Source of the DNA: a virus
Direction: 5' to 3' (one strand)
DNA length: 64,000 nucleotides
IMG/VR virus record: IMGVR_UViG_2754412344_000002
Coordinates: 1,647-65,646 of that record
Numbering within the stretch: the first letter of the stretch is position 1; every line of letters starts with the position of its first letter. A model generated the notes under the pieces. That model had not been told where the DNA came from and ran no database searches. It worked only from the letters and a program-made list of their open reading frames with translations. Shown one piece after another: positions 3,301 through 15,611 of the stretch. The translations under genes were made by a program, and so were the position numbers.

Positions 3301-4350
3301 ATGAGCGAGAACACCAAAATCGAGTGGTGCGACCACACATTCAACCCGTGGGAAGGCTGCCAGAAGGTCGGGCCGGGGTGCGATCACTGCTACGCCGAGA
3401 TGCGCAATGCCCGCTTCGGCGGAGGCACCCCCGTGAACTGGGGGCCCGGCGCGCCGCGCCGCCGCACGTCGGCCGCGAACTGGCGGAAGCCGCTGCAGTG
3501 GAACCGCGACGGCACGTTCTACGCGATCCACGGGCGGCGCCAGCGCGTGTTCTGCGCGTCGCTCGCCGACGTGTTCGACAACGCCGTTCCGGACGCCTGG
3601 CGCGCGGACCTGTTCGACCTGATCTGGAATACGCCGAACCTCGACTGGCTGCTGCTGACGAAACGAATCGGTAATGCCGGGCCGATGATCACCCGCGCGC
3701 TCGAGCTCGCCGGGCGCGGTGTAAACACACCGTGGCCATGGTCAAACGTCTGGCTCGGCGCGACGATCGTTGACCAGGTCGAGGCTGATCGCGACATCGA
3801 AAAGCTGCTCATGACACCCGCGCACCGCCGGTTTCTATCCATGGAGCCGCTGCTTGGTCCCGTCGATCTTCGAGCATGGTTCGATCCGACTGGCATCTGC
3901 TGTATGCGGGAAATGCAGTCCTGCGCCGACTGCCCTGCCGACGCGCCGTGGATTCACGGACCGACGACCGAGTACGCGGAGGACGGGACGGGTTACAGCT
4001 CGCCCGAAATCGACTGGGTAATCGTAGGTGGAGAAAGCGGCGCCGGCGCGCGACCGATGCATTCGGCATGGGCGCGCGATCTCCGCGACCAGTGCGCCGC
4101 CTACGGCGTGCCCTTCCTGTTCAAGCAATGGGGAGAGTGGCGCGAGCCGCTGGACCGGGAACGCTACGACACCACGATGGGCCGCGCCCAGCGCGTGCCC
4201 GCGTTCATCGTCTCGACGGCTGGCACCGTCCATTGCTTCGAGAACGAGCAGACGCGCGATGGCGGCCAAACGATGCTGCGGGTTGGCAAGCGCGCCGCCG
4301 GCCGGCTGCTCGACGGCCGCACGCACGACGAATTCCCGGAGGCACGATGA
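3301..4350 (+). CDS. Phage Gp37/Gp68 (DUF5131) family protein
   Basis: IEWCDHTFNPWEGC.KV.PGCDHCYAE, RVFCASLADVF, WLLLTKR, RFLSMEPLLG, IDWVIVGGESG motifs. Confidence 0.9.
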   Translation: MSENTKIEWCDHTFNPWEGCQKVGPGCDHCYAEMRNARFGGGTPVNWGPGAPRRRTSAANWRKPLQWNRDGTFYAIHGRRQRVFCASLADVFDNAVPDAWRADLFDLIWNTPNLDWLLLTKRIGNAGPMITRALELAGRGVNTPWPWSNVWLGATIVDQVEADRDIEKLLMTPAHRRFLSMEPLLGPVDLRAWFDPTGICCMREMQSCADCPADAPWIHGPTTEYAEDGTGYSSPEIDWVIVGGESGAGARPMHSAWARDLRDQCAAYGVPFLFKQWGEWREPLDRERYDTTMGRAQRVPAFIVSTAGTVHCFENEQTRDGGQTMLRVGKRAAGRLLDGRTHDEFPEAR

Positions 4351-10225: not shown

Positions 10226-10414
10226 TCAGGCTCCGTCACATCTCGACCATGGGCCTTTGCCGCCCCAGTTTTGCCAAGCGACTGACTTCAGCATCAGCCA
10301 GTTGTACGGGGTGTAGAGATGGCCGGCCCAGTCCCACCATAGCATCGGCCTTGATACCCAATCGCCGAGCCAGAAGAAGGACCACGACGCGATGAATCCG
10401 ATGGCGGCCTTCAT
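10226..10414 (-). CDS. Trp-rich small protein, possibly membrane-associated
   Basis: 62 aa with 9 Trp. Confidence 0.55.
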   Translation of the reverse strand: MKAAIGFIASWSFFWLGDWVSRPMLWWDWAGHLYTPYNWLMLKSVAWQNWGGKGPWSRCDGA

Positions 10415-10761
10415 TTCTGTTCTCCGCGCTTACCGATTTCTGCCGCTGCGCGAACGATGGCGCAGCGGGTCGCCGCACAATGATCGTCGCCGTAATTCTC
10501 CACGGCATATGGGCGCCCCGGAGCTTTGAAGTTTGTGGCTACCACTCCGAGGTCTAACAGCTGAATATCGAGCCGGAGCTTCACCGCCAGCCGCAGCGCG
10601 TCGCCGTCGTCGGTGAGAGGATTCCAGTATTCTTCGACATCCTTGAGCCAGAGCGCCGCCTTGATCCCGTAACGGATCTCGAACCAGTCGGCATCCTCGT
10701 AATGACCCGGATCGTATCCCGCCGCCCTTGCGGCGAGTTCGAGCAGTTCTCGGTCGGTCAT
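10411..10761 (-). CDS. Phage hypothetical protein
   Basis: MTDRELLELAARAAG...WNPLTDDGDALRLAVKL...ATRCAIVRAAAEIG, a common phage motif set. Confidence 0.8.
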   Translation of the reverse strand: MTDRELLELAARAAGYDPGHYEDADWFEIRYGIKAALWLKDVEEYWNPLTDDGDALRLAVKLRLDIQLLDLGVVATNFKAPGRPYAVENYGDDHCAATRCAIVRAAAEIGKRGEQK

Positions 10762-10886
10762 TTCACTTCCCTCGCCCGATTTGCTCGGGATACTTGTCGC
10801 GGATATTGCGCTCCCATGCCTTGCCGATTCCGCAAAGGCAGGCGATCATGATAAAAAACAAGACTCCGAGTCCGATCAAACCCATT

Positions 10887-11102
10887 TCACTGTTCTCCCT
10901 CACTAGCAGGGGTGCGGCGATTCTTCGGATAAACGGTCGTCAAAGGCGCTCCATCAGGACCGTCTTCCCACCACTCGACACGCCCAACGTCCTTGCGCTG
11001 TAGCGCACATTCGATCTCCATGTCGCGTGAATGCTCACCCTTATTCCACGTTTGAAGGAGAAATTCCCCGCTCGAAGAGTAAATTCTGACGTGGTAGGTC
11101 AC
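10887..11102 (-). CDS. Phage hypothetical protein
   Basis: 71 aa, coupled to upstream gene. Confidence 0.6.
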   Translation of the reverse strand: MTYHVRIYSSSGEFLLQTWNKGEHSRDMEIECALQRKDVGRVEWWEDGPDGAPLTTVYPKNRRTPASEGEQ

Positions 11103-11611
11103 GATCCTTCTCCCTGTCGTTGCGCGAGGGCGGCGTCGATCGCTTGATCCAGAACCTGACCTTCGTATGCGTCGCCAATCTCACCGATCGCGCGGAGGTC
11201 TAGTTCAGGCCCATCGTCTGGAAGCGCGACGAAGCGCGTATAGTGCGCGCGCAGCCACCGATACCGCTCCGCATCTTTCTCCGCTGCTTCCAGTTTGGCC
11301 CGCAGTTCGCTAACGGTTTGGCCGACGAATGCCGGCACTTCGTCAGGACTTCCGACCGCTGCGCCTAGCAGCGAGTCAGCATAACCCTCGATAAACGCCT
11401 TCTCACGACACTCAGCAACGGTCGCCAGCAGCGCGTCGATCTGCTGCTTACCGGCTTCCATTTCTGCCAGCAGGAGGTCGATTGCGTTCGCTGCCTGTAA
11501 CGGTACTTTAGAGACAGCATCTCGGTATCGCGACGACGTAATGCTGATTATCGCCTCGTATTCGTCGCGCAGCTTCACCGCCAGCGTCCGCATCTTTTCG
11601 TGGTCGATCAT
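11099..11611 (-). CDS. Ead/Ea22-like protein
   Basis: MIDHEKMR.LA...coiled coil...KDAERYRWLR...LDQAIDAALA. Confidence 0.7.
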   Translation of the reverse strand: MIDHEKMRTLAVKLRDEYEAIISITSSRYRDAVSKVPLQAANAIDLLLAEMEAGKQQIDALLATVAECREKAFIEGYADSLLGAAVGSPDEVPAFVGQTVSELRAKLEAAEKDAERYRWLRAHYTRFVALPDDGPELDLRAIGEIGDAYEGQVLDQAIDAALAQRQGEGS

Positions 11612-11735
11612 CGGTTAGTATCCCTCAGTGGATATTGAGACTTCCACATTTTGCATTTCTGGCATTGCTGAGGCCCAAGCCTGATGGGGTTCCAGCCACA
11701 TTTGCAGCGCCAGTAATCGGCGGTGTGATACACCA

Positions 11736-12242
11736 TCACGCACCTCCCTTATCACTAATGGCCTGAAGAGCCAAGTACAGCGCGTGCATATGAAGAGGCA
11801 GGCGCCGAGCTTTTACATCGCCATCGTGTTGGTCGCATGGGTGAACAACCACGTCATCGAGCGCTTCGCGAACGACTTTCCATGCGGAGGCGATGATCGC
11901 GTCCCTGTCGGGAGTGGTGCGGCGGCCGAGGCTTCTAAGCCATCTTTCGATGTCTTCCTTGAATTCGGCACACGCATTCTGATCATCCAGAGCCGCAGAT
12001 AACCATCTGCCCAGATTCCATTCTTCAGCGCTCCATGATTCAGGTTTGTCCTCGTTATCGAATCCATCCTCTCGCAAGGGGGTCGGTCCTTTGGCTTCGG
12101 CCCACGCTTCATCCCAAACGATTTCTAAGGCAGTCCAAGTAGGATCGCTTTTGCTGATGCCCATTTTTCTCATCAAAGCGGCAAACTTCATCTCGCGCTC
12201 ATCCATGGCGCCATCCGGTTTGATATGCACTCCGTAGTTCAT
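11736..12242 (-). CDS. Phage hypothetical protein
   Basis: 168 aa; AGGAG RBS at 12252-12256 (minus). Confidence 0.7.
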   Translation of the reverse strand: MNYGVHIKPDGAMDEREMKFAALMRKMGISKSDPTWTALEIVWDEAWAEAKGPTPLREDGFDNEDKPESWSAEEWNLGRWLSAALDDQNACAEFKEDIERWLRSLGRRTTPDRDAIIASAWKVVREALDDVVVHPCDQHDGDVKARRLPLHMHALYLALQAISDKGGA

Positions 12243-12256
12243 GTTAAAATTCTCCT

Positions 12257-13306
12257 ATGATTTCCGTCTATCGTTACCGCGTTAAATCATTGAATGGGTT
12301 GCTGAATCAGCAAGCCCGCGCGGTGAACTACGTCTGGAATTTCTGTAACGACACGCAGAAGCACGCGCTCAAGTGGGGCAAGAAGTGGCCGACGGGTTTT
12401 GATCTGAACGTGCTGACGGCCGGCAGCAGCAAGGAACTTGGTGTTCATTCCGGCACTATCAACGCAACGTGCGAGCAATACGCGAAGTCGCGCAGCCAGC
12501 ACCGGCGCCCTTACCTGCGCTATCGCGGAAGAAAATCGCTCGGCTGGGTTCCGCTGAAGGGGCGCGACCTGAAGCGTGAAGGCGATGCGTTTCGCTTTGC
12601 TGGCAGCACCTTTCGCGTATTTAATAGTCGGCCGCTTCCCGAAGGCAAGATCAAGGACGGAACCAACTTTTCGCAAGATGCTCGCGGCAACTGGTTTCTC
12701 AACATCGTGATCGAGATGCCCGATGTTCAGGCACGTCCGATCCGTTCCGGCGTCGGCATCGATCTTGGCCTGAAAGACTTCGCCACACTTTCGACCGGCG
12801 AGAAGCTGCCCAATGATCGGTTCGGTCGACGAGCGGCGGAAAAGCTGGCGAAAGCGCAGCGAGCACGAAAGCACAAACGGCATATCGCGAAGTTGCACGC
12901 CAAGGTCGCGAACGCTCGCGCCGACTTCCAGCACAAGCTCGCGCTCGATCTGGTGCAACGCTTCGACTACATCGCGGTCGGCAACGTGTCGGCCGCGAAG
13001 CTCGCCAAGACCAAGATGGCGAAAAGCGTCTATGACGTATCCTGGTCGTCCTTCCGGAACAAGCTCCGTTACAAAGCGATTGCGCACGGAGCTATGTTCG
13101 AGGAAGTGAACGAATCGCTTTCTACCGTAACCTGTTCTGCGTGCGGTTCGCGCAGCGGCCCAAAAGGTATCGCAGGTTTGCGAATAAGGGAATGGACGTG
13201 CGGTGATTGCGGAACGGTTCATGATCGTGACATAAATGCTGCTTTGAACATTCTCCGATGCGGACGTGCATCGCTTGCAGAAGGAATCTCGCGTTTGCCA
13301 GCGTGA
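12257..13306 (+). CDS. tnpB: RNA-guided endonuclease TnpB, rearranged-RuvC type
   Basis: VGIDLG (RuvC-I D), IAVGNV (Gly at canonical Glu), VNE 44 aa later, CSACG/WTCGDCG zinc finger, DRDINAALNI (RuvC-III D). Confidence 0.93.
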   Translation: MISVYRYRVKSLNGLLNQQARAVNYVWNFCNDTQKHALKWGKKWPTGFDLNVLTAGSSKELGVHSGTINATCEQYAKSRSQHRRPYLRYRGRKSLGWVPLKGRDLKREGDAFRFAGSTFRVFNSRPLPEGKIKDGTNFSQDARGNWFLNIVIEMPDVQARPIRSGVGIDLGLKDFATLSTGEKLPNDRFGRRAAEKLAKAQRARKHKRHIAKLHAKVANARADFQHKLALDLVQRFDYIAVGNVSAAKLAKTKMAKSVYDVSWSSFRNKLRYKAIAHGAMFEEVNESLSTVTCSACGSRSGPKGIAGLRIREWTCGDCGTVHDRDINAALNILRCGRASLAEGISRLPA

Positions 13307-13337
13307 GAGGACGTCAAGATTGGCCCTTGAGGGTGTA
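13150..13337 (+). ncRNA. Predicted omega/reRNA: IS200/IS605 right end plus flank-derived guide
   Basis: GGAATC-CTCGCGTT(TGCC)AGCGTGAG hairpin-AGGACGTCAA ending 13317; guide would start GATTGGCCCTTGAGGG; 5' boundary is a guess. Confidence 0.55.
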
Positions 13338-13613
13338 GAGGGGAGTTTTGCGTGCGCCGTCATTTCGTTCGGCGATCGAATTGTTGGCTTGCAACTCGCC
13401 AATAAACACCTTGTCTCGGAACGTTCGACCTTCCTCGACAAGCCACGCCACCGGCTCTCCGCGCAGTTTCTCCAGCAATGCAGATTCGAGGGCCGCGACT
13501 CCCTTGTAAAAATCCTCAGCGTCACCTTCTACTTGGCCGCTGCTGTAGAAATCGACACCCGCGCTAGCAAAAATGTCTTCAACTTCCTCGCGCGACAGAA
13601 TCGGCTCACTCAT
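13314..13613 (-). CDS. Phage hypothetical protein (stop codon now supplied by the IS end)
   Basis: 99 aa ending LYTLKGQS; TGA is the complement of the IS TCA at 13314-13316. Confidence 0.7.
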   Translation of the reverse strand: MSEPILSREEVEDIFASAGVDFYSSGQVEGDAEDFYKGVAALESALLEKLRGEPVAWLVEEGRTFRDKVFIGELQANNSIAERNDGARKTPLYTLKGQS

Positions 13614-13816
13614 GACGGTTTCCTCTCGCCGGTTTCGAATTTTTCCCGCCCATCAAAAGCGTTGTGCACAATGACATTCGGATCATCTTCGTCTTCTTCC
13701 GGATGACATTGACAGAGCATCGGTAAATGTCGATCAACCTCGTCCACCGGGACAACATGGAATTCGCTGCCGTATTCGATGATCCGCCAACCTCTTTCAA
13801 TCATCGGCTCACTCAT
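13610..13816 (-). CDS. Phage hypothetical protein
   Basis: H.VP..D...H...CQCHP...IVHNAFDGRE..E motif. Confidence 0.7.
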   Translation of the reverse strand: MSEPMIERGWRIIEYGSEFHVVPVDEVDRHLPMLCQCHPEEDEDDPNVIVHNAFDGREKFETGERKPS

Positions 13817-14288
13817 GGGAGTCTCCTTGGGCGCGGGCGGCGATCGCCGGGGAAGCGGGCATCGGCAGCCAGTGCGTCGGCTTCCAGCTGGACACCCAAT
13901 GATTCAACGGTTCTTCCCAATACCAGTTACCGGACTCGCCTTTCCCTGCGTCGAATTCTGCTTTGGCGATAGAGCCTTCGCCATAGAAGTGCCAGTGCGT
14001 TTGTCTCGCGCCATAATTGCTGCACCATCCAAGGATTTGCCTCCCATCCTTCGGCGCCGTCTCGATCGGCTGCCACCCCGTCACCTCGCCGCTCGGCTGC
14101 TGCGTGGGGGCGCGCCGGTTCCAGGCAGCGAACGCTGCTTCCTTCGTGTCAAAAATCTTGCCCGACGTGCCGCAGGTGACACAATCGATGAAGTGGGAGT
14201 CGTCGAGTGGCTCAAAACCTTGGATGTGCTTGACGGCGCCACCGCAGAACGGGCATGGCAAGAGCTTGTCAGTCATGGTCGGCTCCAT
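13809..14288 (-). CDS. Lar-family restriction-alleviation domain fused to DUF551-like domain
   Basis: LLPCPFCGG...C..CG...AAWNRRA then WQPIETAPKDG...PTHWLPMP. Confidence 0.8.
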   Translation of the reverse strand: MEPTMTDKLLPCPFCGGAVKHIQGFEPLDDSHFIDCVTCGTSGKIFDTKEAAFAAWNRRAPTQQPSGEVTGWQPIETAPKDGRQILGWCSNYGARQTHWHFYGEGSIAKAEFDAGKGESGNWYWEEPLNHWVSSWKPTHWLPMPASPAIAARAQGDSHE

Positions 14289-15264
14289 TGAGAAGGCGCT
14301 GAATTGCAGCGCGCGTACGCGGGCCGATGTTTCCTTCAGCGAGGCACCATTCGAACTCGGTGCGAAGGTCGTCCGTCAGGCGCGCCTCTCCCGCATCGGC
14401 GGGGGCGCGATAGTTGGCATCCCGATAGACAGGCATGAATTGCATGTCGGAAGCATGTTGGTAGCGCTCGACAGTGCTCTTCCCGCAAGATTTCCATTCC
14501 GTCCACTGGCCGTTCACACGTACCCGGTAATGCCACCCGACCGGCTCGCGCGCCTCTGCCTGTGCGTCGGCCTGCGCGGGTTGCGGGGCGGCGGCGCACA
14601 TGGCGAGAAACACGGCGTCCACCGTATCCCCTCGCGTGTGGTGGAATTCGGCAAGGGCGCGCAGCCCAGCTTGATTCATAGCGTCAGTCGGCCATACGCC
14701 GGGCGATGCCGCCGGGACCGACGCAGCGGGCGTTGCTGCCGCGCGGGACGCTCCGAGGCGATCTACGGCAGCGTGGATCACGTTCGCCCTGCGATCCCAC
14801 AACGGCTTGTCTGCCGACGCGGGTGCAGTGGCCGCGATCCGCTTTTTCCCGCTCCACGCGTTGTACTGCGCCTCGGTTGCGGCGAACCATTCACCGCCAG
14901 CCGACACCTCGAAACGCGGCGCCGCTGCCGCCATAGCGGGTACGAACCAGCCTTCGACGATCCGCTCGCCTTCTTGCGGGAGATATTCGTTGTGCCAGTT
15001 CGCGTGATAGAAGAACTCCTGCCCACCGTTCTCATCGGGACGCGTGCGAAACACGCCGTATGCACGCACAGCCCCTTCCGCACCTGTCTCATTGGCAGAG
15101 GTGGCGAGAACGCCGAGCACGTCTTCGAGCGCCGTGTTGTACCCGAAACGATATTTAGATTCCGGCTCGTCGGTCGGCCCGAGTTCGTCCGCCGGGTTCG
15201 GCACGAACATCGCCTTGATTCGGTCGGTCAGCGCATCAGCGCGGCTCTGTTGTTGGTCGTTCAT
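14269..15264 (-). CDS. Mosaic phage early protein
   Basis: MNDQQQSRADALTD start, Ala-rich linkers between small domains. Confidence 0.7.
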   Translation of the reverse strand: MNDQQQSRADALTDRIKAMFVPNPADELGPTDEPESKYRFGYNTALEDVLGVLATSANETGAEGAVRAYGVFRTRPDENGGQEFFYHANWHNEYLPQEGERIVEGWFVPAMAAAAPRFEVSAGGEWFAATEAQYNAWSGKKRIAATAPASADKPLWDRRANVIHAAVDRLGASRAAATPAASVPAASPGVWPTDAMNQAGLRALAEFHHTRGDTVDAVFLAMCAAAPQPAQADAQAEAREPVGWHYRVRVNGQWTEWKSCGKSTVERYQHASDMQFMPVYRDANYRAPADAGEARLTDDLRTEFEWCLAEGNIGPRTRAAIQRLLNGADHD

Positions 15265-15272
15265 GGTTCGCC

Positions 15273-15611
15273 TCACGCGTGAGTTGCATACACGGCGTAC
15301 GGGCCGTCTTCGCTGTCGCCGATTTCGAGCAGCCACCATCCGGGTTCGGGCGACACGTCCCACACGCTGATGTCGAGGTTCCCGTTGTCGAAGTACGAGA
15401 CGTATGCCGGGTGATCGATGTTCTCGCTTTCGAGGTGGTAGATCGACGTCTTGATGCCGGCACGCGTTTCAAGGTCTTCCCACTGCTGCGGCGTGCAGTT
15501 CTCGGCGCCGTCCATCGTGACCGTCCAGAAATGGAGCAGGTCCGGGTGGATGAAATAGCCGTTCTCGTCGCGCACGACGGGGATCTGCTGGAGAATCGGT
15601 TGGTCGTTCAT
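15273..15611 (-). CDS. Phage hypothetical protein, homolog of 2347-2970 C-terminus
   Basis: IPVVRDENGYFIHPDL...DGPYAVYATHA. Confidence 0.75.
   Translation of the reverse strand: MNDQPILQQIPVVRDENGYFIHPDLLHFWTVTMDGAENCTPQQWEDLETRAGIKTSIYHLESENIDHPAYVSYFDNGNLDISVWDVSPEPGWWLLEIGDSEDGPYAVYATHA

Follow-up and report, generated by a model that had tools for sequence, protein, structure and literature searches.

The window analysed here is a 64-kb portion (64,000 nucleotides) of a 66.9-kb IMG/VR provirus (IMGVR_UViG_2754412344_000002). Antisense to the tightly packed minus-strand early-left operon of this prophage it carries an uninterrupted tnpB gene with an intact right end. Judged by its sequence, the element belongs to the IS200/IS605 family and is of the IS1341 (TnpB-only) type, multi-copy in Burkholderia cepacia-complex chromosomes. 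Its anatomy as a whole is probably best explained by an ordinary insertion at a TCAT target, followed by loss of the left end that is recognised by the transposase TnpA and by retention of the nuclease. Two related proviruses (L102 and L148) hold at the corresponding position what, from their sequence, are genuine unoccupied target alleles preceded by the transposon-adjacent motif (TAM) of the family, and the nuclease is probably still an RNA-guided cutter of such empty alleles.

The features under discussion are the following, in coordinates of the window:
11736-12242, minus strand: phage open reading frame (ORF) of 168 aa, DUF551-related; homologues start at MDEREM, ATG 12204-12206
12210-12214, plus strand: GCCAT, possible remainder of the original target (TAM) on the assumption of a 42-nt left-end stub
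12215-12256, plus strand: short left-end stub, best-guess extent; no hairpin; similar to the L089 copy
12220-12225, plus strand: TTGATA, -35-like; 19-nt spacer to the -10
12238-12242, plus strand: TTCAT, alternative original target; the left end would then be 14 nt (12243-12256), with an ATGA overlap in the empty site
12242-12250, plus strand: TG-T-TAAAAT, extended -10, 6 nt before the ATG
12257-13306, plus strand: tnpB ORF, uninterrupted, 349 aa; Pfam OrfB_IS605 and Cas12f1-like_TNB
13243-13317, plus strand: right end and 3' omegaRNA scaffold; family homology ends exactly at 13317
13256-13261 with 13268-13273, plus strand: right-end helix 1
13287-13295 with 13300-13308, plus strand: right-end helix 2, 9 bp, loop TGCC, two G-U pairs, 9 nt from the tip
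13309-13317, plus strand: right-end tip, GGACGTCAA
13318-13337, plus strand: guide-encoding flank (GATTGGCCCTTGAGGGTGTA), coinciding on the minus strand with the 3' end of the 99-aa gene
13314-13613, minus strand: phage early gene of 99 aa; its present stop TGA (13314-13316) comes from the right-end TCAA

An intact TnpB of a multi-copy Burkholderia family

The TnpB protein matches both Pfam domains (PF01385, 59.5 bits; PF07282, 75 bits) and shares up to 90% of its residues with annotated TnpBs of Burkholderia. Thousands of homologues, some 347-350 aa long, are found in the Burkholderia cepacia complex, Paraburkholderia, Cupriavidus and Pseudomonas, the copy number reaching at least 14 per genome in Burkholderia. 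An earlier note on this DNA had considered that homologues with a longer N-terminus and a left end would mark the element as a deletion remnant: the N-terminus proved to be full length (MxxVYRYRVKSL), the same as in the family, and it is the left end alone that is longer in the homologues. The catalytic site retains the RuvC-I aspartate (Asp169 in GIDLG, codon 12761-12763) and an intact RuvC-III motif (HDRD, Asp323/325), and the zinc finger reads CSAC...CGDC. At the canonical RuvC-II glutamate, equivalent to Glu278 of ISDra2 TnpB by alignment to 8EXA/8H1J, stands Gly242 (IAVGNV), with a substitute Glu286 (EEVNES) 44 residues further on, and this rearranged pattern is also kept in TnpB relatives. 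In all comparisons of the window tnpB with its relatives dN/dS lay between 0.03 and 0.15, and among copies with a short left end, described below, it was about 0.12 at dS >1; tnpB is under long-term purifying selection.

Close to the 5' end of tnpB, the sequence TTGCTGAATCAGCAA (12297-12311, coding LLNQQ) forms a perfect 7-bp inverted repeat where canonical copies have CTGCT-CAACA-AGCAG; the repeat may merely reflect the fact that CTG and CAG are reverse complements. On the viral contigs L090 and L091 (2870-3001 on each) a ribbon-helix-helix (CopG/MazE-like) ORF has its end in GTGA overlap with the tnpB start, an arrangement that corresponds to the ribbon-helix-helix/MazE-TnpB association described in PMC10691335.

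The canonical element and its target

We defined the canonical element from 80 chromosomal copies and scored the target in 70 of them. It reads nTCAT in 69/70 (TTCAT 57, CTCAT 7, GTCAT 3, ATCAT 2) and TGCAT in the other one, and not the CCTAT-like TAM that the earlier note had predicted. The left end measures 83-92 nt from target to ATG (about 119 in some copies) and is made up, in this order, of CAG(AAT)TTGCTCC, a GC-rich hairpin, TTGACA, 19 nt, TAGGAT (or TAAAAT, TAGAAT), 7 nt and the ATG; the gene opens with ATGAT(T/C) throughout the family, and the right end consists of two helices and the tip GACGTCAA. Because the ATG has no Shine-Dalgarno sequence and the variants of the preceding hexamer preserve TAnnnT and not AGGA, the tnpB mRNA of the family looks, and probably is, leaderless.

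From their positions, the chromosomal copies (L002-L086, e.g. L003:2900-3001) tend to sit on start codons (nTCAT being ATGAn on the other strand). The CAT of the target is the called start of a divergent gene in 3/3 loci with gene calls, and at 56/68 distinct sites an ORF of 100 codons or more begins with it, as against 49% of control CATs. On the strand of the divergent gene the outer left end reads GGAGCAA(ATT)CTG, a replacement ribosome-binding site, and the right-end tip TCAA keeps intact an upstream TGA stop that overlaps. Start-codon targeting, a right tip that mimics the target, a left end that provides GGAG for the downstream gene and a probably leaderless mRNA are all features of use in annotation. 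In three copy-rich Burkholderia genomes (at least 5-8 copies scored in each) there was no canonical IS200-type TnpA, and the sole Y1_Tnp match there was a weak one (22.9 bits), to a single 237-aa RAYT/COG1943-like gene (L136:1120-1833; also L137 and L138).

Right end, guide and target alleles

The right end is intact up to 13317, as had been claimed: homology to all relatives stops there, the cleavage end GACGTCAA finishes at that base, and the invariant GGAAT precedes helix 2. Over 22 diverse copies both helices are 97% paired with 71 double-sided changes, a value reached in 0/500 shuffles. An Rfam scan of 11000-15000 found no family.

Within the window the 20-nt guide has a single match, its own flank, and no second one was found in the 64 kb with up to 3 mismatches allowed. 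Since this self-match is preceded by GTCAA and not by TCAT, the resident copy would be protected from cutting itself. The earlier note had expected the guide to match empty alleles in related phages, and this is borne out by two proviruses: in L102, ATCAT is followed by 20/20 bases identical to the right flank of the window, and in L148 (67.9 kb) TTCAT is followed by 26/26. The counterpart of the 99-aa gene closes with KGQS* in each of them, and its TGA stop overlaps the start codon (ATG) of the gene that follows; this TCATGA stop/start overlap is the target. TCAT being directly followed by GATTGGCCC in these relatives, the original insertion site would have been nTCAT plus GATTGGCCC, an ordinary target of the TnpA type.

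A short left end shared with other prophage copies

The earlier note described the element as devoid of a left end and of TnpA, and both statements hold, the first for a left end of the family type. The canonical left-end motif and hairpin are nowhere in the window, no hairpin above background occurs in the 100 nt upstream of the ATG, and more than 150 copies from 95 Burkholderia species genomes align to the window from the ATG onward only; no match to PF01797 (Y1 TnpA) was obtained across the provirus proteins. Hairpin energy as such differs only weakly between chromosomal and phage-borne copies (p = 0.01), as GC-rich background folds well.

Prophage copies with similarly short left ends occur at other sites in L089 (B. 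pseudomallei), L140 (B. cenocepacia) and L141, and all are intact. L089 and the window are alike over 37-38 nt upstream of the ATG, starting from TTTGAT (window 12219), and about 90% identical over the first 90 nt of tnpB. Because the L089 element occupies a different place in the gene order, the block shared upstream of the ATG is best read as element sequence. Canonical targets directly abut the stubs of L089 (ATCAT, 37 nt) and L140 (GTCAT, 43 nt), and in L089 this reading also rebuilds an ATGA overlap. Canonical and short-left-end copies alike have a TAnAAT box at a distance of 6-7 nt from the ATG; its surroundings in the latter are:
L089: TGGTAAAAT, 6 nt, ATG
L140: GGTAAAAT, 7 nt, ATG
L141: GTATAAT, 7 nt, ATG

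The 19-nt spacer between the two hexamers in the window is the same unusual spacing as in the family promoter (TTGACA-19-TAGGAT-7-ATG). When scored with a matrix of that promoter, the block 12220-12250 ranks 232 of 127,940, in the top 0.2% of the window, a rank that comes from the hexamers and their spacing only. On its minus strand the stub offers AGGAG (12252-12256) and an ATG (12240-12242) that now opens the 168-aa ORF. A degenerate IMG/VR search with the 24 nt upstream of TTCAT returned L089's contig and AT-rich chance matches only, and the pattern TAAAAT-6-ATG retrieved from metagenomes one canonical element with a full left end and nothing else.

These comparisons bear on the model put forward in the earlier note, in which the mobile unit consists of the ORF and the right end only (12259-13317) and was seamlessly inserted into TAT/GATT, borrowing its ATG and an extended -10 from the phage. 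It is true that homology to canonical copies starts at the ATG, that the joining of 12258 to 13318 gives, as calculated there, ...CAA TCA TAG GAG... on the minus strand, with KGQS* and then a ribosome-binding site, and that L089 has the 9-nt repeat AATTATCGC just before the ATG and just after the right end. However, ATGAT(T/C) is conserved across the family, which makes the start codon the element's own, and the -10 sequence, correctly located at 12242-12250, recurs in the related elements of L089, L140 and L141 at other sites and thus was not borrowed from the phage. The supposed empty site, ...CAATCATAGGAG... (CTCCTAT directly to GATTGG), has 0 matches in the IMG/VR viral contigs and puts CCTAT, not nTCAT, before the guide; since the family does not target CCTAT, this flank would go unrecognised by both TnpA and TnpB. 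The restored KGQS* does not discriminate between models, since the right-end TCAA mimics TCAT (on the other strand, TTGA for ATGA) and any left flank ending in TCAT restores Ser and TGA, and the 4-bp GATT repeat at the two junctions is not above chance. To our knowledge, moreover, no mechanism exists for inserting an IS200/IS605 element without its left end, and we regard this model as very improbable.

The two short-left-end relatives L089 and L140 show peculiarities of their own. In L089 the 9-nt direct repeat lies just before the tnpB ATG (2487-2500) and across the right-end tip and the first 7 guide bases (3566-3574); it is unlikely by chance (about 1e-4), and the window has GATT only. The L140 copy (L140:2458-2500 and L140:3539-3567) appears to split a phage ORF, the upstream part of which reads through the right end into tnpB, and the downstream part of which has its new in-frame start at an ATG within the stub of 43 nt. 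A distant homologue forms part of a longer ORF of 479 aa. The analysis also covered GenBank phages, for the L089 and L140 sites in uninterrupted form, and the genus, for the gene split in L140. We also considered an RNA-mediated (reverse-transcribed) copy made from a leaderless transcription start, which would explain why canonical homology begins at the ATG, and set it aside, as the similarity to L089 reaches upstream of the ATG and a reverse transcriptase plays no part.

Position of the left boundary

On the similarities just described, the stub more probably than otherwise extends over 12215-12256 (42 nt). Phage homology to the TnpB-less contigs L120 and L121 ends at about 12212, having run through a conserved ...CCATGGATGAG that holds the MDEREM start and, in L120/L121, also the stop of the preceding gene. 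The joint predicted for the empty site is then ...GGGCCAATC joined to ATGGCGCCATGG....

The same element can be given another anatomy, which we hold to be possible but distinctly the less likely, in which the original target was TTCAT at 12238-12242, the start codon of the 168-aa ORF, and the left end was cut to 14 nt (12243-12256). The empty site would read ...GGGCCAATC joined to ATGAACTAC..., its left side being also written ...CAATC, with an ATGA overlap of the kind that is typical of the neighbouring operon genes; an uninterrupted relative carrying ...ATGGCGCCATGGATGAG... directly after the 99-aa gene would be incompatible with it. TTCAT is the commonest target of the family (57/70), deletion of 12243-13317 yields CTCAAGGGCCAATCATGA (...GGGCCAATCATGA) exactly as in L102 and L148, and the four short-left-end copies gradually lose their resemblance to one another some 17 nt ahead of the ATG. 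In the 24 nt further upstream, 4/5 of the differences between the window and L089 fall at third codon positions of the minus-strand ORF (p about 0.045). Yet L089 shares these 24 nt in spite of its different position in the gene order, so that with a 14-nt left end the similarity upstream of TTCAT needs another explanation. Applied to L089, a 14-nt end would also imply TGCAT and an unnatural read-through, against ATCAT and an ATGA overlap with 37 nt. The homologues of the 168-aa protein begin with MDEREM and not with MNYGV, the TTCAT-based joint is absent from IMG/VR by exact search, and it would have to be by chance that phage coding DNA holds a -35-like hexamer at just the 19-nt spacing of the family. 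None of three reconstructed empty sites, compared with the L102 sequence downstream of the joint, gave a significant match.

Mosaic history of the element

The window element is mosaic. Its first 90 nt or so are 88-93% identical to L089 and L141 and 74-78% to canonical copies, nt 90-800 are 85-95% identical to canonical chromosomal copies, and the last 250 nt or so, with the RNA scaffold, are less than 80% identical to everything sampled; just upstream of the scaffold stretch L088 is nearest (84-87% over nt 630-810). By these identities the copy is a recombinant of at least three element lineages, and recombination among copies is therefore part of its past.

Phage context

The operon that holds the element also encodes Lar, NinB, the YqaJ exonuclease and an ERF annealing protein, with the integrase near its end, and its adjacent genes overlap by ATGA. 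The tnpB arrangement recurs in one Burkholderia assembly contig (LPGY01000072.1, assembly GCA_001531005.1) and in one sequencing run, and a search of sequencing runs found it confined to the source sample, no RNA run being listed among the holders. A megablast search of GenBank phages with 10400-15400 returned nothing but short unrelated patches, a DNA search of the 95 Burkholderia species genomes gave no close relative of the left flank, and IMG/VR contained no relatives of the 168-aa gene.

In the protein database the 168-aa product has three partial homologues only, starting at MDEREM. Its first 12 codons (MNYGVHIKPDGA), ahead of MDEREM, have no counterpart in the homologues and lie largely within the left-end stub; under every reading of the boundary the annotated start is in this stub or next to it. 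Either the gene is now an N-terminally extended fusion product or it is mis-annotated.

Several unrelated early genes of these Burkholderia prophages share the end ...ASEGEQK*, encoded by CTGCTAGTGAGGGAGAAC, a motif that includes the ribosome-binding site of the next gene. A variant of it flanks the L141 tnpB cassette on both sides. From its distribution the motif could be a conserved junction sequence, possibly serving mosaic recombination. The genes and flanks concerned are:
window 10887-11102, minus strand
L089:1748-2128, minus strand
L148:2260-2670, minus strand
L141, both flanks

Origin and possible activity of the element

According to the explanation that we prefer, the element would have entered the operon by the normal route, just 3' of an nTCAT target, and the outer half of its left end, with the hairpin and the guide bases for Y1 TnpA, would then have been lost or replaced. 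About 40 nt would have remained upstream of the ATG, common to the short-left-end prophage lineage and carrying the element's own candidate promoter. The order of TTGATA, 19 nt, TG-T-TAAAAT, 6 nt and ATG suggests a leaderless mRNA, and the omegaRNA would be processed from the tnpB mRNA, as reported for TnpB (PMC10278001). Such a copy could no longer be moved by TnpA. Its TnpB-omegaRNA complex would cut incoming or co-resident relatives having TCAT and then GATTGGCCCTTGAGGG.... The outcome would be exclusion of the competitor or, given homology on both flanks, drive-like retention through TnpA-independent homing; in closer relatives the phage ERF, YqaJ and NinB proteins could convert the cut allele, and transposase-free spread by cut-and-copy is possible. 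The order of these events, the exact left boundary, the use of the promoter and cleavage are all what we infer from the sequences.

Several observations weigh against this explanation or against parts of it. The GCCAT adjoining the 42-nt stub is one base off the family nTCAT, although the true target may instead have gone in a deletion, along with genes still present between the two flanks in L148. The searches yielded no empty allele from this phage itself, so that the left boundary may be placed at 12215-12220 or at 12243. Homology of the promoter spacer to the canonical left end is not significant (rank 86,631/127,940), and a standard sigma-70 scan with 16-18-nt spacers detected no promoter. 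Purifying selection is measured over whole lineages and is not datable to the time after the loss of the left end. Finally, the homology arms shared with the window amount to 164 nt at 82% on the right in the L102 contig and to 26 nt on the right in L148, with none on the left in either, and this missing arm makes copy-in homing doubtful in these two target-bearing relatives. As they have the right arm only, killing of a competitor is likelier there than gene conversion.

A plainer account would see in the element a decaying insertion sequence, normally inserted, deprived of its left end and carried as neutral cargo with an ORF that has not yet decayed; the guide match is then trivial, since any TnpB guide, being flank DNA, necessarily matches the empty site of its element. 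A decaying copy would indeed look like one that has lost its left end, and the arrangement is held by just one genome and one sequencing run. On the other hand, the ORF is undamaged, with all residues of its catalytic site and zinc finger, and so are both right-end helices; L089, L140 and L141 are likewise intact, with a mutual dN/dS of about 0.12 at dS >1, and all four short-left-end copies keep the -10 box at the same distance from the ATG. We consider simple decay to be a real but minor possibility. A domesticated TldR-like regulator, the complex of which would bind rather than cut DNA and so control phage or host genes, is the least probable of the alternatives. TnpB-derived RNA-guided repressors are known from prophages (PMC10705468, PMC13418256) and the present element is apparently immobile and lies antisense within an operon, but it keeps the RuvC-I and RuvC-III aspartates together with the substitute glutamate, has no C-terminal truncation, and its guide is simply the transposon flank, without a second match in the window. 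At the other extreme, the short-left-end Burkholderia prophage lineage (the window, L089, L140 and L141) might have given up TnpA transposition altogether and, resident in early operons and reduced to a promoter stub, the nuclease and the omegaRNA, been kept by selection as an RNA-guided, transposase-free gene drive and superinfection-exclusion weapon of related temperate phages against each other, cutting an early gene within its conserved 3' end at the TCATGA junction, the opposite strand of the stub re-supplying the downstream translation signals so as to make the insertion non-polar; this stronger proposal we advance only tentatively and consider rather unlikely as it stands.

Whatever its history, the locus is natural temperate-phage material on which these ideas can be tested, as it combines a presumably non-transposing copy with an intact nuclease and guide RNA, two sequenced target-bearing relatives and three more shortened copies. 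With an active nuclease, the element would do by RNA guidance what free-standing homing endonucleases do in T-even phages, and it might represent a stage on the way from transposon nuclease to defence or competition system; with an inactive one, it would be an ordinary insertion sequence remnant.

Comparison with known systems

TnpB is the ancestor of Cas12, and its natural role is thought to be selfish transposon retention. With the IS1341 group of the IS200/IS605 family (ISPa18-type copies; IS608 and ISDra2 as models) the window element has in common the OrfB_IS605 and zinc-ribbon TnpB, a right-end hairpin about 10 nt from a TCAA cleavage end and preceded by GGAAT, what was probably insertion 3' of a fixed short target without duplication, and a guide taken from the 3' flank. 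IS608 likewise uses TCAA. The window copy differs in being without the hairpin-bearing outer left end, so that one defining feature of a mobilisable element is missing, and its family differs by the nTCAT target and by the tendency to insert precisely at start codons.

Phages also have homing endonucleases of the free-standing kind, such as T4 Seg and Mob, associated with marker exclusion. The likeness lies in a nuclease gene placed between conserved phage genes and able to cut related genomes that do not have it, leading to co-conversion or to the killing of competitors; recognition is by protein there and would be by RNA guide and TAM here, where the nuclease is of transposon origin.

Among the RuvC-II-rearranged TnpBs, the largest group has Gly in place of the canonical Glu and a substitute Glu downstream (Altae-Tran et al. 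2023, PMC10691335); compared at the level of the class and not of a particular branch, the window TnpB matches this Gly-for-Glu class exactly. The nuclease-dead TldR repressors (PMC10705468) are similar in that a TnpB relative is fixed in a prophage, but the window TnpB is not a member, its catalytic residues being kept and its guide being the adjacent flank rather than one directed at a distant promoter. A further comparison is with homing by TnpB, in its restorative form (Meers et al., PMC10055086) and in the TnpA-independent, non-restorative form reported in plasmids and proposed for phages (PMC13565253). The guide is directed to the transposon-less allele behind a TAM, the resident copy escapes cutting as it has the right end where the TAM would be, and repair from the occupied allele copies the element. 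The window element, known from its sequence, differs in its prophage carrier, in an apparently permanent inability to transpose and in the single homology arm present in its known target-bearing relatives. TnpA-independent homing as a concept has thus been put forward before, and the novelty lies in finding a natural case in a prophage, with a short-left-end lineage that recurs. Its anatomy is largely explained by known biology, and the recurrence of intact copies without a left end, together with their targets, makes the use of TnpB by phage against phage a testable proposition.

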